Assembly (NCBI RefSeq): GCF_965363235.1
Contig: NC_134841.1
Location: 74,717,723-74,781,722, forward strand
Direction of reading: 5' to 3'
Source of the DNA: Mytilus galloprovincialis
Lineage: Eukaryota
Length of the DNA: 64,000 bases
Shown: piece by piece, positions 11,744-52,915 of the stretch
Position numbering within the stretch: the first letter of the stretch is position 1
How the letters are laid out: each line of letters starts with the position of its first letter
Notes under the pieces: generated by a model
What the model saw: the letters and a program-made list of their open reading frames with translations, nothing else
The model's database searches: none
Told to the model about the DNA's origin: nothing
Translations under genes and position numbers: made by a program

Positions 11744-14015
11744 TTTTTCTACGACCGCAAAAATTTTAATTTTTTGGTCGTATATTGCTATCACGTTGGC
11801 GTCGTCGTCGTCGTCTGCGTCGTCGTCGTCGTCGTCGTCGTCCGAATACTTTTAGTTTTCGCACTCTAACTTTAGTAAAAGTGAATAGAAATCAATGAAA
11901 TTTTAACACAAGGTTTATGACCACAAAAGGAAGGTTGGGATTGATTTTGGGAGTTTTGGTCCCAACATTTTAGGAATTAGGGGCCAAAAAGGGCCCAAAT
12001 AAGCATTTTCTTGGTTTTCGCACTATAACTTTAGTTTAAGTGAATAGAAATCTATGAAATTTTGACACAAGGTTTATGACTACAAAAGGAAGGTTGGGAT
12101 TGATTTTGGGGGTTTTGGTTCCAACAGTTTAGGAATTAAGGGCCAAAAAAAGGGCCCAAATAAGCATTATTCTTGGTTTTCGCACAATAACTTTAGTATA
12201 AGTAAATAGAAATCAATGAAATTTTAGCACAAGGTTTATGACCACAAAAGGAAGGTTGGGATTGATTTTTGGAGTTGAGGTCACAACAGTTTATGAATTA
12301 GGGGCCAAAAAGGGGCCCAAATAAGCATTATTTTTGGTTTTTGCACCATAACTTTAGTATAAGTAAATAGAAATCTATGAAATTTAAACACAAGGTTTAT
12401 GACCATAAAAGGAAGGTTGGGTTTGATTTTGGGAGTTTTGGTCCTAACAGTTTAGGAATAAGGGGCCCAAAGGGTCCAAAATTGAACTTTGTGTGATTTC
12501 ATCAAAAATTGAATAATTGGGGTTCTTTGATATGCCGAATCTAACTATGTATGTAGATTCTTAATTTTTGGTCCCGTTTTCAAATTGGTCTACATTAAGG
12601 TCCAAAGGGTCCAAAATTAAACTGAGTTTGATTTTAACAAAAATTGAATCCTCGGGGTTCTTTGATATGCTGAATTTAAAAATGTACTTAGATTTTTAAT
12701 TATTGGCCTAGTTTTCAAGTTGGTCCAAATGGGGGTCCAAAATTAAACTTTGTTTGATTTCATCAAAAATTGAATAAATGGGTTCTTTGATATGCCAAAT
12801 CTAACTGTGTATGTAGATTCTTAATTTTTGGTCCAGTTTTCAAATTGGTCTACATTAAGGTCCAAAGGGTCCAAAATTAAACTAAGTTTGATTTTAACAA
12901 AAATTAAATTCTTGGGCTTATTTGATATGCTTTATCTAAATATGTACTTTGATTTTTGATTATGGGCCCAGTTTTCAAGTTGGTCCAAATCAGGATTCCA
13001 TATCAAGTATTGTTCAATAGCAAGAAATTTTCAATTGCACAGTATTGCACAATAGCAAGAAATATCTAATTGCACAATATTGTGCAATAGCAATTAATTT
13101 TCAATTGGAGTTATCTTTCTTTGTATAGAATAGTAGTTGATAATATATGTTGGAAATTTGCCAGACATGACTATGATGTCATTTTCTATTTTTATTTGCC
13201 AATAACTTTATGTAAATAACTTCATTGGAAATTTGCCAATATAAAATGTTGCTGATGAAGCTTTTTTTCCTTATCTTATCTAAAATGTTTTTAGATAATG
13301 TATGTTGGAAATTTGCCAGACATGACTATGATGTCATTTTCTATTTTTATTTGCCAATAACTTTATGTAAATAACTTCATTGGAAATTTGCCAATATAAA
13401 ATGTTGCTGATGAAGTTTTTTTTATTGTTTTATACAATAAACAATGTATATTCACTTTTACTACCAACCAATCTTTACCATTCAGTGATAACAAGCACTT
13501 TATTTTACATTTTAATATTTTATGATGTATTTAAAAGAGTAGTTATTGTTGCAAACTCCATTAGAAATTTGAATTGATATCAGTTTTGGAAAAAGGGAAA
13601 CGGGGATGTGAAAAAAGGGGGGGGTTTAAATTTTTCTCATTTCAGATTTCATAAATAAAAAGAAAATTTCTTCAAACATTTTTTTGAGAGGATTAATATT
13701 CAACAGCATAGTGAATTGCTCAAAGGCAAAAAAAAACTTTTAAGTTCATTAGACCACATTCATTCTGTGTCAGAAACCTATGCTGTGTCAACTATTTAAT
13801 TTTAGATTTAAATAAGTTTGAAGAAGAAATCTTTAATTGATTTGTAAAATCTTGACATTTGTTTTGTGTAAAAAAACCCATGTAATGTCAAAAATTTGAT
13901 CACAATCCAAATTCAGAGCTGTATCACGCTTGAATGTTTTGTCCATACTTGCCCCAACTGTTCAGGGTTCGACCTCTGCGGTCGTACAAAGCTGCGCCCT
14001 GCGGAGCACCTGGTT
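11744..14015 (+). mobile_element. Composite non-autonomous element, copy 2 (about 2.27 kb)
   Basis: Same termini and module order as copy 1. It has a longer (GTC)n tract at 11797-11843 and an extra about 240-bp module (aatgttgctgatgaagttttttttattgttttatacaataaacaatg ... gggaaacggggatgtgaaaaaagggggggg) at 13380-13620. Confidence 0.85.
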
Positions 14016-14459: not shown

Positions 14460-16872
14460 TTTTTATACGACCGCAAAATTTGAAAAATTTTTCGTCGTAT
14501 ATTGCTATCACGTTGGTGTCTGCGTCGTTGTCGTCGTCGTCGTCGTCCGGCGTCCGAATACTTTTAGTTTTCGCACTCTAACTTTAGTAAAAGTGAATGG
14601 AAATCTATGAAATTTTAACACAAGGTTTATGACCACAAAAGGAAGGTTGGTATTGATTTTGGGAGTTTTGGTCCCAACATTTTAGGAATTAGGGGCCAAA
14701 AAGAGCCCAAATAAGCATTTTCTTGGTTTTCGCACTATAACTATAGTTTAAGTGAATAGAAATCTATGAAATTTTGACACAAGGTTTATGACCACAAAAG
14801 GAAGGTTGGGATTGATTTTGGGGGTTTTGGTTCCAACAGTTTAGGAATTAAGGGCCAAAAAAGGGCCCAAATAAGCATTATTCTTGGTTTTCGCACAATA
14901 ACTTTAGTATAAGTAAATAGAAATCAATGAAATTTTAGCACAAGGTTTATGACCACAAAAGGAAAATTGGGATTGATTTTTGGAGTTGAGGTCACAACAG
15001 TTTATGAATTAGGGGCCAAAAAGGGGCCCTATTAAGCATTATTTTTGGTTTTTGCACCATAACTTTAGTATAAGTAAATAGAAATCTATGAAATTTAAAC
15101 ACAAGGTTTATGACCATAAAAGGAAGGTTGGGTTTGATTTTGGGAGTTTTGGTCCTAACAGTTTAGGAATAAGGGGCCCAAAGGGTCCAAAATTGAACTT
15201 TGTGTGATTTCATCAAAAATTGAATAATTAGGGTTCTTTGATATGCCGAATCTAACTATGTATGTAGATTCTTAATTTTTGGTCCCATTTTCAAATTGGT
15301 CTACATTAAGGTCCAAAGGGTCCAAAATTAAACTTAGTTTGATTTTAACAAAAATTGAATCCTTGGGGTTCTTTGATATGCTGAATTTAAAAATGTACTT
15401 AGATTTTTAATTATTGGCCTAGTTTTCAAGTTGGTCCAAATGGGGGTCCAAAATTAAACTTTGTTTGATTTCTTCAAAAATTGAATAAATGGGTTCTTTG
15501 ATATGCCAAATCTAACTGTGTATGTAGATTCTTAATTTTTGGTCCAGTTTTCAAATTGGTCTACATTAAGGTCCAAAGGGTCCAAATTAAACTAAGTTTG
15601 ATTTTAACAAAAATTAAATTCTTGGGCTTATTTGATATGCTTTATCTAAATATGTACTTTGATTTTTGATTATGGGCCCAGTTTTCAAGTTGGTCCAAAT
15701 CAGGATTCCATATCAAGTATTGTGCAATAGCAAGAAATTTTCAATTGCACAGTATTGCACAATAGCAAGAAATATCTAATTGCACAATATTGTGCAATAG
15801 CAATTAATTTTCAATTGGAGTTATCTTTCTTTGTATAGAATAGTAGTTGATAATATATGTTGGAAATTTGCCAGACATGACTATGATGTCATTTTCTATT
15901 TTTATTTGCCAATAACTTTATGTAAATAACTTCATTGGAAATTTGCCAATATAAAATGTTGCTGATGAAGCTTTTTTTCCTTATCTTATCTAAAATGTTT
16001 TAGATAATGTATGTTGGAAATTTGCCAGACATGACTATGATGTCATTTTCTATTTTTATTTGCCAATAACTTTATGTAAATAACTTCATTGGAAATTTGC
16101 CAATATAAAATGTTGCTGATGAAGCTTTTTTTCCTTATCTTATCTAAAATGTTTTAGATAATGTATGTTGGAAATTTGCCAGACATGACTATGATGTCAT
16201 TTTCTATTTTTATTTGCCAATAACTTTATGTAAATAACTTCATTGGAAATTTGCCAATATAAAATGTTGCTGATGAAGTTTTTTTTATTGTTTTATACAA
16301 TAAACAATGTATATTCACTTTTACTACCAACCAATCTTTACCATTCAGTGATAACAAGCACTTTATTTTACATTTTAATATTTTATGATGTATTTAAAAG
16401 AGTAGTTATTGTTGCAAACTCCATTAGAAATTTGAATTGATATCAGTTTTGGAAAAAGGGAAACGGGGATGTGAAAAAAGGGGGGGGGGTTAAATTTTTC
16501 TCATTTCAGATTTCATAAATAAAAAGAAAATTTCTTCAAACATTTTTTTGAGAGGATTAATATTCAACAGCATAGTGAATTGCTCAAAGGCAAAAAAAAA
16601 CTTTTAAGTTCATTAGACCACATTCATTCTGTGTCAGAAACCTATGCTGTGTCAACTATTTAATTTTAGGTTTAAATAAGAAGAAATCTTTAATTGATTT
16701 GTAAAATCTTGACATTTGTTTTGTGTAAAAAAACCCATGTAATGTCAAAAATTTGATCACAATCTAAATTCAGAGCTGTATCACGCTTGAATGTTTTGTC
16801 CATACTTGCCCCAACTGTTCAGGGTTCGACCTCTGCGGTCGTATAAAGCTGCGCCCTGCGGAGCACCTGGTT
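14460..16872 (+). mobile_element. Composite non-autonomous element, copy 3 (about 2.41 kb)
   Basis: Same termini and module order. It has 4 copies of the atgttggaaatttgccagacatgactatg module and the extra 240-bp module (16243-16490, identical to the ORF-track entry 13380..13577). Confidence 0.85.
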
Positions 16873-17611: not shown

Positions 17612-18369
17612 GTTCCAGACCGTATGAGTATTTGGACCGTACGCGTACGGTCTGGACCGTATGCGTACTTTTTCAAAATACTCATACGGTCGGACCGTAC
17701 GCGTACGGTCTGATTAATATAATTAAGAAGTTGCTTAAGTTTTTAATTACAAATGCATGTAACAGATCAACATAACTTAACTCTCAAATTAATATGGAAA
17801 AGTTCAATTGTAATTGAAATAAAAACCTTATTTTTCAACTATTTAAAAAATTCACGCTAATTAAATCTGTTACTATCTTGTTTTTAGCATGTCGATCAGT
17901 AATACATTAATTGAATCATTAAATTGACGATATCGGAAGTAAACATAATGTGGGAGGACAATTGTTTTAGAATATTAGAAACTTTACAAAAAAAATACAA
18001 ATGCAAAGGAACATGAATGACCTGCAAGCATGTAATTGTAAAATATATTACATTACTTGTGGTAGCAAGTGTCACCTTGGGCGAGAATACCAAAATAGGA
18101 TTCAGATATACAATTAAACAAATATTTAATTTCAATTGTTCATTTGTTCATTTTATCCATCTAATTGCAATGATAACAATTTATAAAACTAAAAATAAAT
18201 GTTTGTTTAAATTTAACCCATATGATCCACAACATGTATGGTCAGCTCTTACTGGACCATATGCGTATACTCATACGGTCCGACCGTACGCGTATGGTCG
18301 GACCGTACGAGTATACGTATACGGTCCGGACCGTACGCGTACGGTCCAAATACTCATATGGTCTGGAAC
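17612..18369. mobile_element. MITE-like element (about 758 bp) with about 110-bp terminal inverted repeats built from palindromic GACCGTACGCGTACGGTC units
   Basis: The left end gttccagaccgtatgagtatttggaccgtacgcgtacggtctggaccgtatgcgtac matches the reverse complement of the right end at about 18250-18369. The 6-bp direct repeat ATAAAT flanks both ends (17606-17611 and 18370-18375). The AT-rich core has no transposase ORF. Confidence 0.7.
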
Positions 18370-19837: not shown

Positions 19838-21792
19838 ACCGCAAAATTTGAAAAATTTTTCGTCGTATATTGCTATCACGTTGGCGTCGTCGTCGTCCGA
19901 ATACTTTTAGTTTTCGCACTCTAACTTTAGTAAAAGTGAATGGAAATCTATGAAATTTTAACACAAGGTTTATGACCACAAAAGGAAGGTTGGTATTGAT
20001 TTTGGGAGTTTTGGTCCCAACATTTTAGGAATTAGGGGCCAAAAAGGGCCCAAATAAGCATTTTCTTGGTTTTCGCACTGTAACTTTGGTTTAAGTTAAT
20101 AGAAATCTATGAAATTTTGACACAAGGTTTATGACCACAAAAGAACGGTTGGGATTGATTTTGGGAGTTTTGGTTTCAACAGTTTAGGAATTAGGGGCCA
20201 AAAAAGGGCCCAAATAAGCATTATTCTTGGTTTTCGCACAATAACTTTAGTTTAAGTAAATAGAAATCAATGAAATTTAAACACAATGTTAATGACTACA
20301 AAAGGAAGGTTGGTATTGATTTTGGGAGTTTAGGTCCCAACAGTTTAGGAATTAGGGGCCAAAAAGGGACCCAAATAAGCATTTTTCTTGGTTTTCGCAC
20401 CATAACGTTAGTATAAGTAAATATAAATCTATGAAATTTAAACACAAGGTTTATGACCATAAAAGGAAGGTTGGTATTGATTTTGGGAGTTTTGGTCCCA
20501 ACAGAATAAGGGGCCCAAAGGGTCCAAAATTAAACTTTGTTTGATTTCATCAAAATTGAATAATTGGGGTTCTTTGATATGCCGAATCTAACTGTCATGA
20601 CTGTGTATGTAGATTCTTAACTTTTGGTCCCGTTTTCAAATTGGTCTACATTAAGGTCCAAAGGGTCCAAAATTAAACTTAGTTTGATTTTGACAAAAAA
20701 TGAATCAGTTAGGTTCTTTGATATGCTGAATCTAAAAATGTACTTAGATTCTTGATTATTGGCCCAGTTTTCAAGTTGGTCCAAATCGGGGTCCAAAATT
20801 AAACTTCGTTTGATTTCATCAAAAATTGAATAAATGGGGTTCTTTGATATACCAAATCTAACTGTGTATGTAGATTCTTCATTTTTGGTCCTGTTTTCAA
20901 ATTGGTCTACACTAAAGTCCAAAGGGTCCAAAATTAAACTTAGTCTGATTTTAACAAAAATTGAAATCTTGGGGTTCTTTGATATGCTGAATCCAAAAAT
21001 GTACTTAGATTTTTTATTATGAGCCTAGTTTTCAAGTTGGTCCAAATCAGGATCTAAAATTATTATATTAAGTATTGTGCAATAGCAAGTCTTTTCAATT
21101 GCACAGTATTGCGCAATGGCAAGAAATATCTAATTGCACAATATTGTGAAATAGCAATTTTTTTTTTTAATTAGAGTTATCTTTCTTTGTCCAGAATAGT
21201 AAGCAAGAAATATCTAATTGCAAAATATTGTGCAATAGCAAGATTTTTTTTTAATTGGAGTTATCTTTCTTTGTCCAGAATCAACTTAAATCTTTGTTAT
21301 ATACAATGTATATTCACTTTTTACTACCAACTGATAAATTAAAATTATCTTTACCATTCAGTGATAACAAGCAGTTTTTTTTACATCTTAATATTTTATG
21401 ATGTATTTAAATGAGTAGTTATTGTTGCAAACTCCATTAGAAATTTTAATTGAGATTAGTTTTGGAATAAGGGAAAGGGGGATGTGATTAAAAAAATTGG
21501 GTTCAATTTTTCTCATTTGAAATTTCATAAATATAAAAGAAAATTTCTTCAAACATTTTTTTGAGAGGATTAATATTCAACAGCATAGTGAATTGCTCTA
21601 AGAGAAAACAAAAATTTTAAGTTCATTAGAACACATTCATTCTGTGTCAGAAACCTATGCTGTGTCAACTATTTAATCACAATCCAAATTTAGAGCTGAA
21701 TCCAGCTTGAATGTTGTGTCCATACTTGCCCCAACCGTTCAGGGTTCAACCTCTGCGGTCGTATAAAGCTACGCCCTGCGGAGCATCTGGTT
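19838..21792 (+). mobile_element. Composite non-autonomous element, copy 4 (about 1.96 kb, most diverged)
   Basis: Same 5' terminus (tttttatacgaccgcaaaatttgaaaaatttttcgtcgtatattgctatcacg then (GTC)n) and 3' terminus (...cagggttcaacctctgcggtcgtataaagctacgccctgcggagcatctggtt). Confidence 0.8.
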
Positions 21793-25689: not shown

Positions 25690-26640
25690 GGGGGTAATTG
25701 CTCCAAGGGGGGATTCAAAAAGTTTGGGGTTCCCTTTTTTTTCCCATCACTTGGCGTCCGGCGTCAATTGTCGTCCGTCGTCGTCGTTAACTTTTACAAA
25801 AATCTTCTCCTCTGAAACTACTGGGCCAAATTTAACCAAACTTGGCCACAATCATCATTGGGGTATCTAGTTTAAAAAATGTGTGGCGTGACCCGGCCAA
25901 CCAACCAAGATGGCCGCCATGGCTAAAAATAAAACATAGGGGTAAAATGCAGTTTTTGGCTTATAACTCAAAAACCAAAGCATTTAGAGCAAATCTGACA
26001 TGGGTAAAATTGTTTATCAGGTCAACATCTATCTGCCCTGAAATTTTCAGATGAATCGGACAACCTGTTGTTGGGTTGCTGCCCCTGAATTGGTAATTTT
26101 ATGGAAATTTTGCTGTTTTTGGTTATTATCTTGCATATTATTAAAGATAGAGATAAACTGTAATTAGCAATAATGTTCAGCAAAGTAAGATTTACAAATA
26201 AGTCAAACATGGCCGAAATGGTCAGTTGACCCCTTTAGGAGTTATTGCCCTTTATAGTCAATTTTTAACCATTTTTCGTAAATCTTAGTAATCTTTTACA
26301 TAAATCTTCTCCTCTGAAACTACAGGGCCAAATTAATCCAAACTTGGCCACAATCATTTTTGGGTTATGTAGTTTAAAAAATGTGTCCGGTGACCCGGCC
26401 ATCCAACGAAGATGGCCGCCATGGCTAAATATAGAACATAGGGGGAAAATGCAGTTTTTGGCTTACAACTCAAAAATCAAAGCATTTAGAGCAAATCTGG
26501 TAGTTAAATTGTTTATCATGTCAACATCTATCTGCCCTGAAATTTTCAGATGGATCCGACAACCGGTTGTTGGGTTGCTGCCCCTAAATTGGTAATTTTA
26601 AGGAAATTTTGCAGTTTTTAACCGGATTTTTGTGACAAAA
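25690..26640 (+). repeat. Two tandem copies of an about 490-bp dispersed repeat unit, with a (GTC)n-bearing leader
   Basis: Unit 1 (25803-26285) and unit 2 (26286-26640) both read cttctcctctgaaactac(t/a)gggccaaatt...ccaagatggccgccatggctaaa...catctatctgccctgaaattttcagatg. An inverted copy lies at 34480-34870. Confidence 0.85.
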
Positions 26641-26690: not shown

Positions 26691-27660
26691 GGCAATCAAA
26701 TGTTGTCCGTGCATTTGCTCATGAACCGTTCAACCAAAGCTTTTAAAATTTTAATATGTTGTTACTGACAACTAAATGAAGGTCAAGTTCAATAATGGCG
26801 ATTTTGACTTTTACCGTTCAGGAGTTATGGTTCTTGAAAGATTGAAAAATAAAGTTTCCAGTCATGTCCCTGCATTTACGCATGAACTGTTCTACCAAAG
26901 CTTCCCAAATTTTAATATGTTGTTACTGATGACAAAATAAAGGTCAAGTTCAATAATGACGATTTTGACTTTTACCGTTCAGGAGTTATGGTTCTTGAAA
27001 GATTGAAAAATGGAGTTTCCAGTCGTGTCCGTGCATTTACGCATGAACTGTTCTACCAAAGCTTCCCAAATTTTAATATGTTGTTACTGATGACAAAATG
27101 GAGGTCAAGTTCAATAATGACGATTTTGACTTTTACCGTTCAGGAGTTATGGTTCTTGAAAGATTGAAAAATGGAGTTTCCAGTCGTGTCCGTGCATTTA
27201 CACATGAACTGTTCTACCAAAGCTTCCCAAATTTCATTATGTTGTTACTGATGACAAAATAGAGGTCAAGTTTATTAAAGACGATTTTGACTTTTACCGT
27301 TTAGGAGTTATGGTTCTTGAAAGATTGAAAAATGGTGTTTCCAGTCGTGTCCGTGCATTTTCTCATGAACCATTCAACCAAAGCTTTTGAAATTTTTATA
27401 TGTTGTTACTGATGGCAAAATAGAGGTCAAGTTCAATAATGACTATTTTGACTTTTACCGTTCAGGAGTTATGGTTCTTGAAAAATTGTAAAATGGTGTT
27501 TCCATTCACGTTGTTGCATTTACTCATGAACCATTCAATCTAAGCTTTTCAAATTTTAATATGTTGATACTGATGACAAAATGGAGGTCAAATTTGATAT
27601 TGACGATTTTCACTTTCACCATTCATCAGTAATGGTTCTTGTGATATTGCCAGGATACAA
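26690..27660 (+). repeat. Satellite-like tandem array, 6 copies of a 161-bp unit
   Basis: The ttaccgttcaggagttatggttcttgaaagattgaaaaat landmark recurs at 26811, 26972, 27133, 27294 and 27455, with a degenerate copy near 27612. Confidence 0.9.
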
Positions 27661-29337: not shown

Positions 29338-29478
29338 GTTGGCTTATTCTTCTGTCCAGCACCAGTAACAACAATGACAATTGTGAAAGTTTTACGCAAT
29401 CCATGCTCAGTAGTCTCCCTTGCTTGTGGTGATGAATTGGGTAACATTCATTACTTGACCTGGAGTGGAGGCAAATGA
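29338..29478 (+). CDS. WD40 gene terminal coding exon: VGLFFCPAPVTTMTIVKVLRNPCSVVSLACGDELGNIHYLTWSGGK then stop
   Basis: Acceptor tgttatag ends 29337, in frame with the preceding exon (phase 0). TGA stop at 29476-29478, followed by an AT-rich 3' UTR. Confidence 0.75.
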   Translation, partial: VGLFFCPAPVTTMTIVKVLRNPCSVVSLACGDELGNIHYLTWSGGK

Positions 29479-29805
29479 ACAGTAGAGAAAAGAGTTTATT
29501 TTCACAGAGAAAGACAAGGGAGAATTCATGATACTTGACTCTGTAAAAAGGGGGAAATGTTATGACTTGTTGAAAAATAGGTTTACTGTAAAGGAGATGG
29601 AGAAAACATATGTGTAAAAATGAAGGAAAAAAAAGAAAATTTGAATATAATTGCATCTTGTGACTATTTTTTAATATTTGATATAAATTTGTTAATGTAT
29701 GCACTGTTTTGTCTAGGTTAGTTATTTTTACATTAAATTTATATGAATAAGAAGTAGTTAGATATGCATTTTCTAGTTTTCATTAATTCAAATATTTTCA
29801 TTTGA

Positions 29806-29811
29806 AATAAA
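29806..29811 (+). promoter_or_regulatory. Candidate polyadenylation signal AATAAA for the WD40 gene
   Basis: The first canonical AATAAA downstream of the stop (about 330 nt into the 3' UTR). An alternative lies near 30355. No EST or RNA evidence is available. Confidence 0.3.
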
Positions 29812-30435
29812 CATAGAACAAATATGCTGTATATATATATAATTTTTGGAAAACATTTTCATCCCATTTAGCATAGAGTTTGTACATTATAAAAACTTTT
29901 ATACCAGTAAATTATGTTTTAGAATTCTAAAAAAAAAATATATATTGTATTTATATGGCTTATGTATTGTGTGTGCAATATCTAACATTTAGACTTATTA
30001 TCTCATTTTCTTTACACACAGAAAATGAATATCCTGTATTATATGTATATTATCTGATAAGTTTTTGTTTGACATTATTAGTACAATTGATATTTGTTAT
30101 GTTATATTTTTATTAGTAGACTTTTTTTCTTTGATATTTTGATTGAAAACAAAAGAAAAACTTTGTACATATTTTTCTTATATCAGTTTTAGAGGTTATC
30201 ATATTGTACATATTGGATTAACATAGTTTTGTAGATGTAAAACCCTGTATAATTAGTGATATACACTATCTTATGTGAGATTTTTCAAATGTTGTTAGCA
30301 TTTAGTAGAAATGTGTGTAGCATACATAGAGTAGTGATGATTTCTAGTGCAATGAATAAAGAAAACACTGAATTAAAGTGTTAAATCAGTCATTATAGTC
30401 CCACTTACAAGTACTGATGATGGGTATATATTTAT

Positions 30436-30535
30436 AGATTATCGTTGATCATCTCAACGAGATTGCTTTTCTCGCTTGAGCTGGTACAGCGAAAGTGAGA
30501 AAAGCAATCGAGTTGAGATGACCAATGATAATCTG
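30436..30535. repeat. About 100-bp near-perfect foldback hairpin (agattatcgttgatcatctcaacgagattgcttttctcgcttgagc / gcgaaagtgagaaaagcaatcgagttgagatgaccaatgataatct)
   Basis: The arms are reverse complements with a few mismatches. A second inverted pair ttatcgcta/tagcgataa (30537-30628) flanks a palindromic CCACGTGG at 30593-30600. Confidence 0.7.
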
Positions 30536-33500
30536 TTTATCGCTATTTTACCTATGACGACGTTGTCAATATCATGTCAATTTCGTTAGCAACGCCACGT
30601 GGCCTCCTTAGTTTCTAGCGATAATTTTTCCATCTCAAGCGAGAAGCATGATATGAAAATTATCACAAAAAAAGATCAAAGGAAAAATGCACAAAATAGC
30701 GATAATGATCAATATCCTCTCACCTACTGGTATTGATGTGGGGGTGTGCAATCATCATTCTCATCGTTTGTCCATTTAGTTGTTCATCTTGCTGTTACTT
30801 CTTATAAACCATTGAATGTCATGTAAAAACATTCAGTGTGTAATGGCATAGTGCACCTTATATACAAAGTTTTTATATCCAAAGATTTTTGTGATATTTC
30901 CCATGATATAAAGTTTGTTATATTGCACTTTTCCCTACCGTTTTTCACAAATGGTGGTACAGATTTATGAACTAAAAGGCCTTACTCAACAGTTTTTACC
31001 ATTAATTGTTTTTGTTTTCTGTTATTTTTGAAATCCTTTAACACTGTTTGTTGTTTTTGTTTAGTAAATCTAAAAAGTTATATAGGATACCTTCTCTTAA
31101 CAATTTTTCATTGAAAAAAGAAAAATGTTTTTTTAACCAACCTAAATAATTGTTACAGTTGAAAAAAATTTCATATAATTGTATATTTATAAAATTTGAT
31201 ACAGATAAATTTTCCCTACACAAGTGTATTGTATATATTCTGGTTAAAAGTATATGCATTAAAACTAGATCAAAGTTTATATCTGAAGAATATATATTTA
31301 ACTTTATTTCTCAGTTTTTGGCCTTGAAATATTTCCCACGATGAAATTATGGTTTTATTGCATCGTTCAAATATACAATTGAAACAAATTTAATTTTGTC
31401 GACGATCTTTTTTTTTTCTTTTTTACCTGTGACAACTTAATGTCTTTCAATTACACTTCACCTTTTTTTTATTTATTGTAACATGCATTAAATATGCAAG
31501 ATGTTGTTGTTTTACTGACCTAGATATAAGTTGGTACCATCGGAACTGAAATTAGATACATGCATGTTGCACGTATGACACATCTTTCTGCATAGGTCGC
31601 TCATTTAAATGTCAACATTGATGATCACTCAAACAGAAAAGTAAATTGTTTTATTGTATACTTTAATAGATTATTTCGCAGGAGGTAAAATTTTATGACT
31701 AATAAATATAAACAAATAGTAGAGTACTTGTCACTTTATTTGGTCCAGTTTTTGGAAGATTCCCATATTTATGTTTAAGAAAACATAAATAATTTTATAA
31801 ACTTTGCTAAATTTTAATTTTCTGCATTTTAAAAAAATATTAGATTTTTTTATTTTTATTTTATTTTTTTTTTAGAGGGGGTCAAATTAAAAAGATAATT
31901 AGTTAAATTTTTCATAAAATTATTGAAGAACATTGAAATTTGGGGGTGGTTAAAAAAATCATTAAAAATACTCATATTTTTTTTTACAAGAATAGGAGCT
32001 GGTACACAAATTTCCTCTATCTGAAAAATTGTGAAAGAGTATTTATAGGTTGTGTGTCAAAGACAAAAGAAAGAAAAAGAAATAAATGAGATGTGAGAAA
32101 ATGTAGGAATGAAAGTTGTTGCTAAAAGAATGTGGAGTATGGTTAACTGTGAAAAGATGATATGCTAGAGTAAAAGAAGAGGAAGGATTGATGAAGTAAG
32201 AAAAATAATGATTGGTAGACTGAAAGATGAAAGCAAGAAAAGTACCGAAAGTGCTGTGTCAGAATGCATGATGCAAGGGAGAAATTTTGAAATGAATGAT
32301 AATCAGAAATCTGAGGAATTCCTAAACAATCTTTTATTTCATTTTATTTACCAAAATGTTTGTAAATTTTGGATAAGTTTTTTTTTTTTTTGGCTCTTTT
32401 AAAATTTGTATGTACCAGTTTTGTGATTTCAGCAATCTTCTATTTAAGAAGCAGTAGAAATCACAGATATTTGTTAACATTTTTGTTGTTATAAATTTGT
32501 TTTTGATATATTTTAAATAAAAATTGTTAATTAAACAATCTGTTGTTGTTGTTCTTTTTTTCCATTATATATGATCACTTTTGATCAGAAGTATGTGTTA
32601 CAACGTATTTCATATTAATGTCTCCTATTAGCTTATGAAGACAGATATTGTTGTATCAGACACTTACTTATAGTTATTTGTATTTACCTAATATCCAGAT
32701 ATAAAGACTAGAGACTGCCAAGTAGTAATGTATATAAAAAATCAAAAAGCAATAAAATTCACAGGACAGTTACAACCCATATATTCTAAGAACAGACACA
32801 TATGAAGTAAAGAGATGTTAGGTAAAACTCATTTAGAAAGTTACCCAGCAACACTCTGTGACTTAAATAAAAGACATTTAAAGGTCACCATACAAGTACA
32901 GCAAAGGTCTTTTGTGTTGGAAACTTTGCCTCCTCAGTCATGGTATTTTTACTTTAAAACAATCACATATCTCTTTGATATTTGGTTTACAGTTGTAAAA
33001 GCATTGGCACATCTCATTTCCTTGAAGAGTATTTGGTCTTGACCCCGCAGTCATTTTACTTTAAAAACAATCACATTGCTCATAATAAGTTAATGATATT
33101 TGGTATGCAGTTATATAAGTGCTGGTACATCTCATTTATTTTCTATTGGCTTTTGCATAGTTTTACATATGAAAGTTTGTGATTAGGTCAGTTTAAAAAG
33201 GGCACTAAAAATGATAAGTCTTTGATATTTGGTATGCAGTTGTATTTCCATGGAAATTATTTAGTCCTGTACCTTCAGTCTTTGTTTATTGAATATTTGG
33301 TATAGTTTAATGTTAAAAGTACAAATATTTTAATTTCAACATTTGCATTTACCTATCAAAATTACATACAGTTGAAACATCTCTTTCCACAGTTTAGTTC
33401 GTTTTTCACAGTCATTTATTTTTAAAAGGCTCCTAACCCTCCCTTGTATTTCTACTTATTTTGGTTCTGGTCAATTGATATAAAGTGGACTTTCACATTC

Positions 33501-38160: not shown

Positions 38161-38648
38161 TATAGAAATATAAAAGATAACCTGATTGATATATATTCTA
38201 GTCTTTCAGAACCGAAACGGAAGGATTTTACATTTTTCTTTAAATGCATTTTTCTTTCTTAAAAAGGCTTTTATTATAAAGTGAATCATGTAAGTTCCAA
38301 CTGAAAACTGTCTACATGATTACACCCATAAAAACGGCTCTATCATTACTTTTTGTCTGCAATCAAAAGAAAAACAAACGAGCAAGTCACCATAAAAAGA
38401 GGTTTATACTGCAATCAGCTATTTTGCTATACAGACAACAGTACCATTTTGGGGTATTTCCCTTTGAGCGTAGTCCAGGCGGTACAAAATTGACATTTTA
38501 AGGGAAAAGACAGGGAAAATGAACTCTAATTAATAACATTTGATAAATCATGGTATATAAATTACCAATTTGAAGACATAACAAGTTTAAATTCATAAAA
38601 GTTTGACCATTGACTTGTTACTATAATATAGTATAAAAACAATATACG

Positions 38649-38773
38649 TATAGTGTCTTGAAATATGAAAATTATTTGTATTCGGCACGAAACGGGAAAA
38701 TGCTCGGTAGAACCTCGCATTTCCCCCGTTTCTAAGCCTCATACAAATACATTTCATATTTCAAGACACTATA
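38649..38773. repeat. About 125-bp nested hairpin (tatagtgtcttgaaatatgaaaattatttgtat ... atacaaatacatttcatatttcaagacactata, with inner gaaacggg...cccgtttc)
   Basis: The outer 33-bp arms are reverse complements with 2 mismatches. The inner GC-rich core is also palindromic. It lies about 500 bp upstream, in minus orientation, of the candidate minus-strand ORF. Confidence 0.7.
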
Positions 38774-40739
38774 CATATATTGTCTAATTAACCTATAGCC
38801 GCACAAGTTCAAAGCGAAAGAGAACATCGTGTTTTCAAAACCCTCTTTTTTTACTTGGCATTCAAAGATGTTGGTCCGAGTGCCAAATTCATGTTAGTTT
38901 TTTTTTCGGATTCCGAACAAATTCTAAGGCTTCTAAAATACATGAAGTATTTGCTATAGTTGGCGTAGGTAAACACCAATGAATGAATTGAATCTGTCAT
39001 ACTTGATTTTGTTCATCAATATTTACAAAAAGGAAAAAGCTCAAGTGGATAAAGAAAGATGTACGATAAGGCTACATATTTGACTAATTAAATAAAGAAA
39101 ATAAAAACACAAGGAATAAGTGATTTATTCCACAACATAATCAAGATGTTGAAAGACATAGTCTATCACTCAGATATCTGTGATAATATATAATTTTGTC
39201 TTTTGTTTCTTCTAAAAAAAACTTCAAATCTCTTAATTGAAGGAAAAACTGCAACAAGTGTGCCCATTTTCAGATCTTCCAATTTAAAATCAGACAATGT
39301 TGCCCAAATAGGACTGCCAAAAAAAATTGTCTTATATATATACAAATATGTTAAAAGAACCAATATCATATCAATAAAAGACCATTTCTCATTCTAATTC
39401 GATATGTGTAAGAATTTATAACATGATGAAGGACATTTCTGTGAGACATTACCAGGCAAATCACCTTGTTAATAAATAAATCAATGAAAAATTAACATAA
39501 TTGAAAAAAAGGGCGAAATGACAATCTATGCAATTTCAGAGGGGGTAAGGAGGGGGGGGGCAAAAAATGACTCTTATTTATTACGTTTTTTACACAATGT
39601 TTGCTTTATACCACTGGGCGATATGAAACCCTCAGATAACTTATGATTATAATATAAAGATATGTGGTACGTGTACGAATGCAAATGAAACAACTATCCA
39701 TGTCATCCATCTGAGTCCAAATGAGGCGGATTTGAGCAATTATAGGTCTTCGTAAGGCCTTCTGTACATAATGAGCAAAACCCATATCTTTCCGTGGAAA
39801 CGCTTTTTTCTACCTTCTTCATGTCCCCTCGATTCAATTGTATGTCACAATTTGAAGAAAAAAAAATATTCACATCCAGCACATTGCAGCATTGCCAGCT
39901 GTCACGTAATACGGCAGCTGTATATATAATCCCTTGCGTTGCAACTTCAATTTGAATTTTTTTTTTTCTTCACATAAATCAATTTCCCCATATCAGTAAC
40001 GTATCAGTCATGGGCCGTGGCGTGGCTGGCGGGCACCAATCCCTGTAACTTGAAAAGCATTGGTTTTCCCAAGCTTAATAAAGGATATTGCATGGAAATA
40101 GGAATAAGTAAATTATTTCGTACATTTTCGAAAATATGCATCTTTTAAATTTCGAATTTAAAAAAAAAACGCATCTAAACAAATTGAGTTTAGAGGTCAG
40201 CTGAATAAAATTATTTCGTACATTTTGTACGCGGATGCGGGATGTTCTTGCTGTGTGAACCTTTTCATGCCCTTTGTTCGGGTTGTTGTCTCTTTGAAAC
40301 ATTCCCCATTTTCATTCTCTATTGTAGCTGGTTTCATTGAAAAAACTGTTACCGTTTAAAAAAAGATATCATAAAGGCGCAATCAAAAATAAATTAGTGG
40401 CAGATGCACGTATAGGGACAACAACATGGTTAAAAAGGAAATAAACAACCTACCACAAAACACTATATACAGGAAAGTAATGAAAATTAATTGTTAAAAG
40501 TCATTATTCATTTAAATTTTACAACATAGGTACATGAAAATTGGACTACCAATATGTTAGCTGACTATAATAAGGAGTCCAGGATTGCCTAAGAAATAAC
40601 GTTTTACGTGGTGACGTATAGTTTTAAATTATAGAAAAAATAAATATAATCATTCAGTCAAGCGAACATGTCTTAAATCAGAGTCATATCTAGACATGTT
40701 TATAAGTCTTTGCTTCAAGTTGTAAATTCGGTTACCATC

Positions 40740-49085: not shown

Positions 49086-51374
49086 GCATATACATACATA
49101 ATGTGGCGGGGGTTAAACATGTTAGCGGGATCCCAACCCTCCCCTAACCTGGGACAGTGGTATAACAGTACAACATAAGAACGAACTATATAAATCAGTT
49201 GAAAAGGGCTTAACTCATCAGATGGACAAAAATACAAGTGGACATGGCCGGGTACTTGTACATCCCAACAACAAAAAGACACTAGTTACAGATCTGAGAT
49301 TTCTCACAGTTAACTGGCAGCTAGTTCAAAGCCACTAACAACTAATAAAAAAAATCATGCATCTAAGACTTATATATATGACTATTAAGCTCATGTGAAT
49401 CCGCCAAACTCAATACTTTATATACATGTACTAACTGACTTTGATTTCATAAAAAAAAATGACTTACATGTACAAGCTGAAAGTTGTTCTGTCTTACAAT
49501 TTCTTTAAATTTCAAAAAGAATTACTGGTCATACTATGTAGGGGTTGTGGTTGTTACAGTGTATTCCTAAAAAAACTGTTCGATTTAGTAATTTATGAAA
49601 TTCAACACAAACTATTCATATAGTCTATGTTCATTCCATTTATGGTCCCTCAAGGGAGTTATATTGACATGTACAAACAATACAGTACAAGATGACCAGT
49701 GAACAAACATGTACTCAGAAGGGCAATAAGTATAATACCAGACCATTTTAAATGTTCAGTACTCTGCTTCGGGGCTCTGTGCAGCAGTGCTACCCTAGGT
49801 GAAGCCAACGTTGGATTGTATAGTACATAGTAATAAAATTGAAAATGGAAATGGGGAATATGTCAAAGACTAAGAGAAAACAACCCGACCACAAAGAGGC
49901 TGAGCAGACAACAGGCGAAAGCTGTAATGTATGCATTTGGATATACATGTATTCACAAAGGATTTAAGTTATTATGCTAAATGTACATGAGATGTGGAGG
50001 ATACACATTGTATTATAATTGTAGCTGAAGACTAGACATTTTTTTAGGTCAAATTGAAGTATTTCAATATTTTTACATGTATATGGCATGCCAAAAGAAA
50101 CACATCATGTACAAAAAATTTACATGTAGAGAAAACTGTATTTTAATACAAAAATGGACAAAATATACATTTCAATATGAATGTTCACTGTTTCTGTTAC
50201 TTGAAAAACAGTTTTCATGATGCACAGTAACCCTCTTGTAGCCAAGATTGTCTACATCTACATGATCTAGATATTTATCATGTTTAATTTACAAACTACT
50301 AAAGACTGAGTGAAGATTATTTGATGGTTTGAAATGCTCTTTGAAATTTCACCATACTAGAATTCAAGATTTGTGCCACATTAGTTTCATCTGGTATTTT
50401 TTAAGCCATATGTACTGAGTATTGCATTTGTAAATGGTAACCTATGTCTTGTCCTTGTTTTTGAACCTATTGAACCAGAAACAGACTAGTACAAGCTATG
50501 CATTGTACCATACACATGTCAGTAGCATACCACAAGACATCATGATGAGATGTCACTACTTTGCACAATGCAGTATCTATTAGTACAATGGAAAAGTGTA
50601 CCCATCATTAAAAAAATGTGACCAACTCAATGTTACATGTATAAATAAGGAAATGCATGTGGTTTGATTGCCAATGTCTATCTGACAGCTGAGTCCAAAT
50701 GAAATGAATATAAAAAGTTATAGGTCAACATATAGCCTTGTAACAAAAATGAGTAAACCCATACTTTTATACATACATAGCTATAGTCGACTGTATAAAA
50801 AGGCCCCAACATGACAAAAAAGTCTGGTAGAAAAATAAGACATTTTCTTAATTGTAACAAGCTTTATAGCTGACTACATGTATGTGGTAAAGGGTATGCA
50901 CAGGGTATGCACTTGTATTCTATACAAAATACTCTTTGGTAACTTAAACTGGATGTCACTGCTTTAGATAGGATCCTGTTGTCATGTTCATAAACATGCA
51001 TGTTTTTTTTTGCACACAAGTTTTTGAAAGTGACCATTCTTGTTAAACTCAATTTATTTACTCATTATATTATTGTACATGTATACTTACATAGTATATA
51101 TATCCATTAAGTCTCCCTTTATTAAACTAGCTGTTACTTATTGTACATTATTGTAAAAACCTCTCATCTGGTTGAATGATTATTATGACTATTTTCACAC
51201 ACTTTCTAAAAATGGCACATTAAAAACTGAACTTATAAAGTTTAAAAACCTAAATATAAATTCTGTACATGTACATGTATATTAAAGCCAAGAAACCGTT
51301 ACCCACTACAAGTAGAAATGATTTTGAAGAAATTAAGAATATAATAAATATTTTTTTTAAATGATATTTTTCAG

Positions 51375-52289
51375 ATGCCGAAGGCCATAAAGCAGAAATG
51401 GGGGCCAATTGGATACATGGCATAGAAAGAAACCCAATTTTTAAAATTGCTGATGACAATAATTTGCTAGAATTGAGACATGGCAATAAAGGTCTTCGTA
51501 ATAAAACATCCTTTAAAATGGAAAATGGAGAGGAAGTAACTGAAAAAATAGTCAATCAAGTAAATTTGAACTATGGGCAACTAATTATGCAAGCAGAGGA
51601 TTTTTATCAAAATGGTATGCCCACAATGGAAGAAAACGATAGTGTTGGGGCATTTCTGGAACGTGAATATGAAGACACTTTGGAACGATATACAAATGGT
51701 GACCGTCATATTAGAGAATTGTTGTTTGATCAGCGAAAAAGGCTAGAGTGTTGTATATCTGGCTGTGATTCATTGTCAGAGGTTTCTTTGAGTGAGTTTG
51801 GAAGTTATGAAGAACTACCAGGTGTTCATTATACAATCCCACCCGGTTTTACTGCAGTTTTAGAAATCCTAAAAAGTAGTATCCCAAAGGAAAATATTTT
51901 ACTCAATCATCCAGTCAAATGTATACGATGGAATAGACAATTTCCAGATCCAGAAAAAAATGTTTATGAATGTTGTGTTGAATGTGAAAACGGTGAAAAA
52001 TTCTATGCAAATCACGTAATATGTACTGTTTCACTAGGTGTTTTAAAAGCTGCATGTGATAGGATGTTTAACCCACCATTGCCTAAAATGAAATTAGATG
52101 CAATAGATGCAGTTGGATTTGGCATTGTAGACAAAGTTATTGTTCAGTTTGATGAACCAGTGACAGAGCCTGAATTGTTCCGTGTAGAACTTGTGTGGGA
52201 CAATGATCTCATTGAAATGAATGATCTGCGACACACATGGTATCGTAAAATATACTCCTTTGAAGTGGTACATGACAATGTTTTAGTTG
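51375..52289 (+). CDS. Polyamine oxidase exon 2 (305 codons): (D)AEGHKAEMGANWIHGIERNPIFKIADDNNLLEL...VVHDNVLV(G)
   Basis: Acceptor atgatatttttcag ends 51374 and completes the exon-1 phase-1 codon. GANWIHG matches the conserved G(A/S)xWIHG motif of PAOX/SMOX/plant PAO. A single long open frame (ORF track 51398..52306). Donor TTG|gtgagt at 52290. Confidence 0.85.
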
Positions 52290-52362
52290 GTGAGTATGAT
52301 AGTTAAAGTGGCATAGGTGCTACATTTGTATCTAGACTGTCTTTTTTCACTTAGATCATATA

Positions 52363-52915
52363 CTGTGAAAGTACTTTTATTCGTGGGGTACCAATTTTCG
52401 TGGTTTTCGTGGATGACTTTATCCTCGAATTTAAGTGTCCAACGAAATAAAAATCAAATTGTTTTTGATCAATGAAAGTCAGATTTCCGGTATTGATATG
52501 CTAGTATGATAAAGTGTTCATTTTATATCCTCATAGTTCTCGTACATATAAGAAATAAAAAAATTATGCTGGTCTTGATTTTGCTCAGAATTATTTGGCA
52601 ATTCATAGCATTTGTTTATGTTACTGTTTTCTTTAGGTGACATGTTAATGGCCTAATTAACACCTTTGATGGTCTTTAATCTGTTGATCACTTTATCATG
52701 GGTTAATTAGTGTTTTCACTACGATTTACACGGGTCAATGTTTACTTTGCAATTTCCTTCAATCTAGACTATTTGTAACCCTCGTTTCTAAAGGCTTCAA
52801 TTTTTCAATTTTTTTTTTTTAGAAAACTAAAATCCACGAATTTAAAAACCCACGAACATGTAAATATTGCTCAAACCACGAAAATTGATACCAACGAATT
52901 AAAGTACTTTCACAG
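52363..52915. mobile_element. Tc1/mariner-like (Stowaway-type) MITE, about 553 bp, in polyamine oxidase intron 2
   Basis: Terminal inverted repeats ctgtgaaagtacttttattcgtggggtaccaattttcgtggttt and aaaccacgaaaattgataccaacgaattaaagtactttcacag (about 45 bp, CAGTG-type). Flanked by TA at 52361-52362 and 52916-52917. Internal ttcgtgg/ccacgaa sub-repeats. Confidence 0.7.

Follow-up and report, generated by a model that had tools for sequence, protein, structure and literature searches.

A long and very stable hairpin lies just beyond the last exon of a TEP1-like WD40 gene, and the question raised by this locus is whether such a structure belongs to the gene, for instance as a precursor of small RNAs or as a regulatory or terminator region, or whether it came to this position as part of a mobile element. 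The window analyzed here, i.e., the whole stretch of DNA considered, is 64 kb long. The reading that we favor, with a probability of roughly 0.8, is that positions 30428–30706 are one copy of a non-coding, interspersed mobile element of about 270–280 bp that is present in multiple copies in bivalve genomes; its affiliation with the Helentrons is graded separately below. The neighboring gene was recognized by tblastn of P0001 (73% identity, last 45 aa) and by Pfam TEP1 beta-propeller matches on P0001. Its stop codon lies 949 nt from the element and 957 nt from the start of the hairpin, and a candidate poly(A) signal is found 67 nt upstream of the element and 75 nt before the hairpin. In protein searches with the WD40 and spermine-oxidase sequences, the best matches reached 80% and 91%, respectively, with Mizuhopecten (73%) and Tegillarca (71%) as the nearest named ones, while Pfam searches with six of the largest open frames of the window gave no matches. 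The features of the locus are the following:

29338–29478, plus strand: last coding exon and stop codon (TGA, 29476–29478) of the TEP1-like WD40 gene
30355–30360, plus strand: AATAAA hexamer resembling a poly(A) signal, a candidate read from the sequence
30428–30706, minus strand (the proposed "sense" for a Helentron/HINE-like reading): one probably complete member (about 278 bp) of an interspersed family of non-coding repeats
30428–30435, minus strand: conserved 8-nt tail from the palindrome to the terminus, ATATTTAT on the plus and ATAAATAT on the minus strand
30436–30534, no strand: 99-nt imperfect palindrome, with left arm 30436–30483, spacer 30484–30486 and right arm 30487–30534
30537–30549, minus strand: inner subterminal inverted repeat (subTIR), TTATCGCTATTTT on the plus strand, 2 nt from the palindrome; the 3′ subTIR in the minus-strand reading
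30595–30602, no strand: CCACGTGG, which holds a CACGTG E-box
30612–30628 with 30656–30672, no strand: internal short inverted repeat that includes the third copy of the core TAGCGATAA (30616–30624)
30630–30645, no strand: arm-like fragment CCATCTCAAGCGAGAA, which matches the inner left arm, taken as its reverse complement, at 15 of 16 positions
30693–30705, minus strand: outer subTIR, AAAATAGCGATAA on the plus strand, at the element end; the 5′ subTIR in the minus-strand reading

A long foldback stem had been described in an earlier note at 30436–30535, and this was borne out at 30436–30534 by two arms of 48 nt each that are separated by 3 nt and fold with a z-score of about −15. Watson-Crick pairs are formed at 41 of the 48 arm positions and two more are G:U on the plus strand, while the five unpaired positions consist of one A·C and two tandem G·A/A·G 2×2 loops. 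The minimum free energy (MFE) of the hairpin as RNA is −66.9 to −67.4 kcal/mol on the plus strand (z −14.8) and −57.7 kcal/mol on the minus strand (z −14.3), and folded as DNA it reaches −37.8 (z −12.3). None of the 200 shuffles that served as the control for these z-scores folded as well, and the comparison with shuffled sequences proposed in the earlier note clearly set the hairpin apart (z −12 to −15). The description of the region as a "cluster of long foldback hairpins" was overstated, as the sequence beyond the main hairpin contains short inverted repeats and folds weakly (30535–30725, main hairpin left out, z −3.5 on the plus and −2.1 on the minus strand).

The second inverted pair that had been noticed previously, in which TTATCGCTA at 30537–30545 pairs with TAGCGATAA at 30616–30624 and brackets CCACGTGG at 30595–30602, does exist, but TTATCGCTA has a better partner at 30693–30705 with a perfect 13-bp match. 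Three copies of TAGCGATAA are present in the 64 kb, all of them inside the block, a number that was reached in none of 100 shuffles, and the shorter core TTATC/GATAA is repeated about six times in alternating orientation within the element. Within the internal inverted repeat at 30612–30672, nhmmer also found a self-palindromic match (30620–30666). The 8-mer CCACGTGG alone is within chance for the window (at least one occurrence in 13 of 100 shuffles). Among the fragments of the arms that had been reported further downstream, only the one at 30630–30645 scores above shuffled sequence (31 versus a shuffle maximum of 28, n = 200), whereas "aaatagcgataatgatcaat" matches 30537–30549 rather than the arms. 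A degenerate tandem duplication of the arm of about 143 bp was considered and dropped, as every other arm-like alignment downstream scores within the shuffle range.

The origin of the block became apparent from its copies elsewhere. A HMMER search whose query was the 46-aa peptide obtained by translating through the hairpin returned 12 genuine cluster matches, and 11 further copies, 72–90% identical to the window copy, were recovered on 10 contigs that are unrelated and belong to four public datasets (one contig, L127, holds two), with every fetched contig matching the window at about 30427–30706. The family set thus comprises 12 copies on 11 sequences, i.e., the window and ten contigs from the four datasets, from which a consensus of 267 nt was built. 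The flanks of the copies are mutually unrelated, and the 3.1 kb upstream of the L122 copy lack a TEP1-like exon. Identity to the consensus ranges from 77 to 93% among the copies and is 90.6% for the window copy (K2P 0.10). No additional copies were found in the 64-kb window by a 20-mer search with 3 mismatches, sensitive BLASTN or nhmmer. Some candidate matches were rejected: those of the 17-mer GATTGCTTTTCTCRCTT in metagenomes (at least 120) never extend past about 20–30 nt and are ascribed to chance, and the match of P0127 (5266 aa) to the hairpin peptide is built up from dozens of weak alignments with the protein's own repeats of about 98 aa. A full-text literature search with the arm and subTIR sequences returned one irrelevant primer match only.

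The element has sharp limits. The BLAST and nhmmer matches of the 11 other copies start at window positions 30426–30430 and mostly end at 30705–30707, and in an alignment that includes the flanks the similarity between copies drops sharply on both sides. The eight positions directly preceding AGATTATCG (−8 to −1) are conserved in 9–11 of the 11 copies, whereas position −9 and those beyond look random; at the outer end, the copies remain similar up to GATAA or GATAAT. Read on the minus strand, similarity starts 0–2 nt before TTATCGCTATTTT, this boundary is good to about ±2 nt, and the ends can be written as TTATCG... and ...ATAAWTAT on the minus strand or as ATAWTTAT... and ...GCGATAA on the plus strand. 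A target-site duplication consistent across the 11 copies was not found. The number of Ts at the minus-strand 5′ boundary varies (2, 3, or 7), a T follows the 3′ end in some copies, and the copies are flanked by mixed bases, with no evident TT target. All six frames of the window copy hold stops, the longest open stretch being 46 codons, and the element contains no central tandem repeats or microsatellite.

Everything that made this block conspicuous lies between these limits, namely the hairpin, the TTATCGCTA/TAGCGATAA pair, the CACGTG, and the arm fragment. The palindrome is found in all 12 copies, with internal deletions in two, and the tandem G·A loops, both G:U sites, and CACGTG are common across copies and present in the consensus. 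CACGTG occurs in 8 of the 12 copies, the full 8-mer CCACGTGG only in the window and L129, and CCATCTCAAGCGAGAA is specific to a subfamily, as it is common only to the window, L123, and L125, while the other copies carry CATATCACTCGACTCC at that place. The two subTIRs are perfectly complementary over 13 bp in the window and over 15 bp (15/16) in the 12-copy consensus, the pair is conserved in most copies, and the inner one sits in the best-conserved stretch of the family (0.91–0.93). The hairpin, the TTATCGCTA/TAGCGATAA motifs, and CACGTG are features inherited from the family consensus and did not evolve at this locus. Because the hairpin is a built-in palindrome of a scattered family, the block is to be regarded as an ordinary transposon insertion rather than as a gene-specific structure. 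The earlier note had itself named many genomic copies as the outcome that would point to an ordinary MITE rather than a locus-specific structure, and the family was found at 11 other places with unrelated flanks.

Base composition is explained by the same insertion. The block has a GC content of 0.33–0.43 and a CpG observed/expected ratio of 1.42, compared with a GC content of 0.18–0.29 in the flanks and not a single CpG in the 957 nt upstream. Since the consensus of the inserted element is itself CpG-rich (16 CpG, observed/expected 1.74), of which the window copy keeps 13, an island of high CpG and GC content stands beside a 3′ UTR without CpG.

Alternative explanations place the origin or the function of the hairpin at the locus itself. 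An inverted duplication made in place, e.g., by replication template switching, would be immobile and would fit the single copy in the 64-kb window as well as two GA-to-TC dinucleotide differences between the arms that resemble template switching or arm-to-arm correction, but it is refuted by the 11 other places with unrelated flanks at which this palindrome recurs together with its arm differences, which leaves it virtually no probability. It is very unlikely that the hairpin is transcribed, for instance by read-through from the 3′ end of the TEP1-like gene, and processed to small RNAs, which would make it a miRNA-like or hairpin-RNA locus of transposon origin. On the strand of the gene the RNA stem is indeed very stable (about −67 kcal/mol) and lies just past the candidate poly(A) signal, several miRNA hairpin models were matched below threshold in Rfam, and the window copy pairs better than the family consensus: the MFE of the hairpin ranges from −32 to −68 kcal/mol over the copies and is −61.7 for the consensus on the plus strand, with a weaker value of −52.5 on the minus strand. 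Rfam searches of the whole window, however, gave nothing at gathering score, and a permissive search of 30200–30950 returned only generic sub-threshold matches to miRNA hairpins and snoRNAs, the best with 31.6 bits against a cut-off of 83. Animal pri-miRNAs have a stem of about 35 bp and a loop of at least 10 nt, a shape that a 48-bp stem with a 3–7-nt loop does not fit. Mutations among the copies break pairs without compensation, and there is no excess covariation (81.8% paired cells across copies versus 82.0% in shuffles). The two G:U sites, which had been considered as a sign of selection on a plus-strand RNA, are CpG-to-TpG transitions already present in the consensus, and this idea was dropped. 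In addition, a dedicated endogenous siRNA pathway able to dice long hairpins was not found in a survey of 32 mollusks (PMC12479628). The pre-miRNA-like reading of the earlier note is not supported, in view of the absence of an Rfam match at gathering score, a geometry unsuited to Drosha, and the lack of compensatory changes. Co-option of the block as a cis-regulatory region, either as a CACGTG E-box enhancer or insulator or as a structure that aids transcription termination of the WD40 gene, appears very unlikely. The CACGTG does lie in a CpG-rich, GC-richer island just beyond the gene end, and 13 of the 16 consensus CpGs are kept; yet both the motif and the CpG richness belong to the transposon consensus and recur in copies of unrelated context, the 8-mer CCACGTGG is within chance for the window, and hairpins are not known to terminate transcription of RNA polymerase II genes. 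The regulatory or terminator reading thus found no support, as the CACGTG simply belongs to the family consensus.

The type of mobile element is a further question. The earlier suggestion of a foldback or MITE-type insertion holds in substance, as the block is an interspersed repeat, but the element is neither a strict foldback element nor a MITE with terminal inverted repeats, because the palindrome makes up 99 of 278 bp at one end and neither terminal inverted repeats nor target-site duplications were found. Two long inverted arms do not make up the element, its termini (ATAWTTATAG... and ...AGCGATAA) show no complementarity, and the inverted repeat reaches the terminus at just one of the two ends. 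The family resembles MITEs and MITE-derived miRNA precursors in being a short non-autonomous element with a long, near-perfect hairpin near a gene, although this hairpin is not built from the two element termini. MITE-derived miRNA precursors have mostly been described in plants, and hairpins of this kind are known to give rise to miRNA annotations that are false or young. A non-autonomous, MITE-like cut-and-paste DNA transposon of another superfamily, in which TTATCG/CGATAA would be subterminal transposase-binding sites and the palindrome an internal foldback rather than a rolling-circle terminator, is a possible but doubtful alternative. It would agree with a short, non-coding, multi-copy, and sharp-ended element, with the roughly six alternating TTATC/GATAA cores, with a stem that far exceeds known HINE palindromes, and with the lack of an evident TT target. 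Against it stand termini that are not inverted repeats of each other, the lack of a consistent target-site duplication (n = 11 copies), and an asymmetric layout, with one repeat terminal and its internal partner next to an end-proximal palindrome, which is the pattern of Helentrons/Helitron2.

By analogy with this pattern, the family would be a non-autonomous Helentron derivative (rolling-circle, Helitron superfamily, HINE/DINE-1-like), an assignment that we consider somewhat better than an even bet. HINEs are characterized by subTIRs, a 3′ palindrome, no target-site duplication, and a variable number of terminal Ts (PMC4067079, PMC7492417); their 3′ subTIR is followed by a short palindrome 8–35 bp from the 3′ terminus, and they insert at TT (PMC4067079). 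The family is likewise non-coding, interspersed, and multi-copy, with paired subTIRs of 13–15 bp, within the 11–15 bp of HINEs (12–15 bp for the elements of Thomas et al. 2014, PMC4067079). One of them lies within a few nt of the 5′ terminus (about 2–4 nt in HINEs) and the other precedes a palindrome near the 3′ end, and the T-rich termini vary in T number, with no consistent target-site duplication seen in 11 copies. On the minus strand, the palindrome at 30436–30534 becomes the 3′ palindrome of the element, following the inner subTIR after 2 nt and ending 8 nt from the 3′ terminus. It differs in the length of its stem, 48 bp compared with 5–10 bp in described mite families, i.e., about five to ten times longer, and because the stem is so long the inner subTIR lies about 110 nt from the terminus instead of 38–60 nt (PMC4067079). 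The family also lacks a clear TT target, central tandem repeats or microsatellite, and an inverted repeat beside the 5′ subTIR. A further point against the assignment is that the consensus hairpin folds less stably on the minus strand, the one proposed to be transposed, than on the plus strand (−52.5 versus −61.7). With the bivalve HINEs, such as Cg_HINE of Crassostrea gigas and pearl/MgE/DTC84 (PMC7492417), it shares the type of host and a modular layout, with a left flank that holds a subTIR and a right flank that holds a subTIR and the palindrome, whereas the satellite-like central repeats and the 60-bp right flank of those elements are absent. Elsewhere in the 64-kb window, interspersed elements with short satellite-like arrays of about 160 bp, typical of bivalve HINEs, were observed. 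The subTIR motif and its 8-nt core are absent from the supplements of PMC4067079 and PMC7492417, in which the 6-mers TTATCG and CGATAA gave two chance matches inside unrelated oyster satellite sequence, and the oyster Cg170 monomer matches the window weakly over about 30–40 nt. Canonical Helitrons have a hairpin of 16–20 nt compared with 99 nt here, and their 5′-TC and 3′-CTRR ends and insertion between A and T were not found in the family.

If the family is indeed Helentron-derived, the minus-strand order of 5′ end, 13–15-bp subTIR, variable interior, complementary subTIR, 2 nt, palindrome, 8 nt, and 3′ end suggests how it might move. The Rep/helicase of an autonomous element would act in trans and recognize the subterminal repeats, and the 3′ palindrome would fold in the displaced single strand and mark the stop of rolling-circle transposition. 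The Helitron 3′ hairpin acts as a transposition terminator, as experiments with Helraiser have shown (PMC4778049), and it lies about 11 nt from the 3′ end, compared with 8 nt here; a terminator role of the family palindrome is presumed from this likeness. Each inserted copy would then decay neutrally, in line with the lack of excess covariation and the wide spread of hairpin MFE over the copies, with the window copy happening to rank among the best preserved.

In repeat-rich bivalve genomes, a striking gene-side hairpin (z about −15) can therefore be the mere end of a transposon, and if copy number is left unchecked, such a hairpin would be mistaken for a miRNA or a regulatory structure. Locally, the insertion accounts for the abrupt CpG- and GC-rich island beside the CpG-free 3′ UTR. 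It is an unlikely, speculative extension that the family represents an undescribed bivalve Helentron-type lineage with a 3′ terminator palindrome enlarged to about 100 nt, and in which well-preserved copies past gene ends are read through, with hairpin transcripts entering the miRNA pathway, or stall replication or transcription; if true, hairpins and CACGTG boxes would be distributed around genes by the element. For work on transposons, the family contributes a bivalve element that combines Helentron-like subterminal repeats with an unusually long end palindrome, and it could help to test how hairpin length influences the termination of rolling-circle transposition.

The hairpin lies downstream of the stop codon of a TEP1-like WD40 gene on the + strand, the last exons of which were placed using P0001, a WD40 homologue mapped on the window:

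29338-29478, + strand: last exon of the TEP1-like WD40 gene, with the stop codon TGA at 29476-29478
30436-30534: imperfect palindrome with 48-nt arms and a 3-nt spacer

The long foldback described in the earlier note is indeed present, with Watson-Crick pairs at 41 of the 48 arm positions, and base-by-base comparison of the arms revealed two G:U sites on the + strand, a single A.C mismatch and two 2x2 loops, each a tandem G.A/A.G. Folding gave -67.4 kcal/mol for + strand RNA (z -14.8 versus shuffles), -57.7 kcal/mol for - strand RNA (z -14.3) and -37.8 for DNA (z -12.3), and none of the shuffled sequences came near this stability. The proposed cluster of long hairpins reduces to this single one, as the downstream remainder consists of several short inverted motifs that fold weakly without it (z -3.5 and -2.1). 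The second inverted pair is also real (TTATCGCTA at 30537-30545 and TAGCGATAA at 30616-30624, flanking CCACGTGG at 30595-30602), and 30537-30549 has a stronger partner in its perfect 13-bp complement at 30693-30705. All three occurrences of TAGCGATAA in the 64 kb fall inside 170 nt at the element, while of the arm fragments reported downstream only that at 30630-30645 beats shuffles.

The stop codon precedes the hairpin start by 957 nt (29479-30435), an interval with zero CpG, and an AATAAA at 30355-30360 lies 75 nt before the hairpin. CpG o/e is 1.42 at 30436-30720 versus 0.43 for the whole window (GC about 31%, an animal genome), and GC is 0.33-0.43 there versus 0.18-0.29 in the flanks; so abrupt a change in composition hinted at foreign, inserted DNA. 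Other CpG-rich 300-nt windows occur at 11.5-11.8 kb, 17.5-18.3 kb and 43-45 kb, containing or adjoining repeats at 17.7-18.3 kb and 11.9 kb, a pattern that fits mosaic germline methylation plus younger repeat insertions. The window also holds a long single exon of a spermine oxidase-like gene (51365-52303, + strand, 313 codons), with top matches up to 91% and best named matches in Mizuhopecten (73%) and Tegillarca (71%), which marks the host as a bivalve mollusc.

Neither BLASTN, nhmmer nor a 20-mer search with mismatches found a second copy of the element in the 64-kb window, and scanning metagenome contigs with a 17-mer yielded chance matches only. Public gene callers frequently output spurious open reading frames across repeats, and relatives were therefore sought with peptides translated from the hairpin. 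The concatenated six frames recovered the protein hit P0125, and a full HMMER scan with a 46-aa plus-frame peptide recovered 12 genuine clusters; a thirteenth (P0127) was rejected because its score came from repeats within the protein itself. All ten encoding contigs compared (L122-L131; seven from ENA assembly ERZ6864376, three from different Logan runs) carry a family copy matching window positions ~30427-30706 at 72-90% identity. L127 holds two in opposite orientation, at 312-606 (+) and 719-980 (-), which are separated by 113 nt and jointly form a far larger inverted repeat. In a 12-sequence alignment with flanks, similarity sets in at 30428 (ATAWTTATAGATTATCG...) and stops at 30705/6 (...AAAATAGCGATAA[T]), with unrelated sequence beyond both ends, and no TEP1-like exon lies within 3.1 kb upstream of the L122 copy. 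These sharp ends and differing surroundings make it a dispersed repeat of about 278 bp rather than an orthologous conserved element. All features in the earlier note fall inside it.

The repeat is very probably (about 0.9 or higher) a copy of a non-autonomous mobile element. Its two termini do not form inverted repeats with each other, and no consistent target-site duplication appears among 11 copies; both points speak against a classical TIR-type MITE. A foldback element is disfavoured because the palindrome makes up only one third of the sequence, and the ends are not the 5'-TC and 3'-CTRR of a canonical Helitron. On the minus strand the parts follow one another as:

5' side: 5' terminus, 0-2 nt, TTATCGCTATTTT(AC), variable interior
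3' side: (GT)AAAATAGCGATAA, 2 nt, 99-nt palindrome, 8 nt (ATAAWTAT), 3' terminus

In order and position the parts match Helentrons and their HINE/DINE-1-like derivatives, which have 12-15-bp subterminal inverted repeats (subTIRs), the 5' one within 2-4 nt of its terminus and the 3' one preceding a palindrome that lies 8-35 bp from the other terminus; they make no duplication and have T-rich ends with a variable number of Ts (PMC4067079). The same layout is found in oyster Cg_HINE, pearl, MgE and DTC84 (PMC7492417), and in the present family the T count at the 5' boundary likewise varies (2, 3 or 7). However, the stem is 48 bp versus 5-10 bp in HINEs (PMC4067079), and unlike in HINEs the inner subTIR is set back ~110 nt from the end, no TT target is apparent and a central array is lacking; searches of supplementary material from PMC4067079 and PMC7492417 did not return the subTIR sequence. 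A Helentron-type, non-autonomous origin is therefore favoured only slightly over even odds. If it holds, the palindrome would fold in the displaced single strand and, once folded, would mark the end of rolling-circle transposition, a role shown for the Helraiser 3' hairpin (PMC4778049).

In the 267-nt family consensus the palindrome already has the two tandem G.A loops and the two G:U sites seen in the window copy, so the arm differences are older than the insertion. They represent the same GA versus TC dinucleotide flip twice (window 30459-30460 and 30478-30479; columns 26-27/83-84 and 45-46/64-65 of the hairpin alignment), and in one copy (L127a) the left arm is flipped to TC, closing one loop. 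Because the same flip recurs, it suggests arm-templated correction or template switching inside the palindrome. Identity to the consensus is 77-93% across copies and 90.6% (K2P 0.10) for the window copy, whose hairpin (-66.9 kcal/mol; consensus -61.7, copies -32 to -68) belongs to the best-preserved ones. At 30468 the window copy alone carries a C, which turns an A.G mismatch of the consensus into a pair, and the two sides of one pair near the loop both show CpG transitions. An arm-like fragment (30630-30645) and an 11-12-nt duplication (~30561-30571) common to the window copy, L123 and L125 mark a subfamily. The CpG island at the element follows from the CpG-rich consensus (16 sites, o/e 1.74), with no function needed; the window copy retains 13 of the 16, the three lost being TG/CA. 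Conservation is highest in the right arm and adjoining TTATCGCTATTTT (0.90-0.93) and lowest in the interior (30553-30605 and 30627-30664, 0.75-0.82), which would fit a role of the ends in mobility.

The mobile element was thus right in substance among the three readings offered earlier. A small-RNA precursor, for which a stable hairpin might speak, is unlikely: the hairpin has no Rfam family and a non-canonical geometry, a 32-species survey reports no dedicated endo-siRNA pathway in mollusks (PMC12479628), and covariation measures in ten full-length hairpins are no higher than in shuffles. Standard pairs fill 81.8% of pair cells versus 82.0% with partners shuffled among copies; the hairpin structure thus appears to be under no selection, individual copies simply shedding pairs. 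Nothing speaks for a co-opted E-box or terminator except the presence of a motif that the transposon takes with it everywhere; CACGTG is in the consensus and in 8 of 12 copies. Among the 12 copies compared, the 8-mer CCACGTGG is confined to the window copy and L129, and alone it is within chance expectation for the window. The other family copies rule out a purely local inverted duplication.

Further long inverted repeats, probably small transposons, lie at 38639-38783 (48-nt arms at 90%, 49-nt spacer), 18254-18327 (37-nt arms, CpG-rich GGTCCGACCGTACG-type repeat) and 52352-52926 (36-nt arms, 503 nt apart), so foldbacks are not rare in this genome. Introns of the WD40 gene contain four copies of a composite interspersed element (~6965-8385, 11855-13423, 14567-16289 and 19910-21281), each copy with arrays of 161 nt x ~3.8, 125-135 nt x ~3.9, 35 nt x 2.9 and ~155 nt x 1.9; the element's short ~160-bp and ~130-bp arrays have a satellite-like organisation as in bivalve HINE/pearl elements (PMC7492417). 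A separate 161-nt x 5.8 array lies at 26704-27641, and the oyster Cg170 monomer has weak matches only (25799-25828 and 26290-26330). The tandem array at 2199-3160 (122-nt unit, 7.9 copies, 92% matches), each unit with an acceptor-like tttttag ahead of a WD40 exon piece (ELNTFRGHANAITSVCFVGQSMLCSAGLDN), has the appearance of a stretch of exon plus intron that was tandemly amplified inside the TEP1-like gene.

The most apt description of the element at 30428-30706 is an apparently new bivalve non-autonomous DNA transposon with Helentron-like ends, whose sole notable feature is its unusually long end palindrome.
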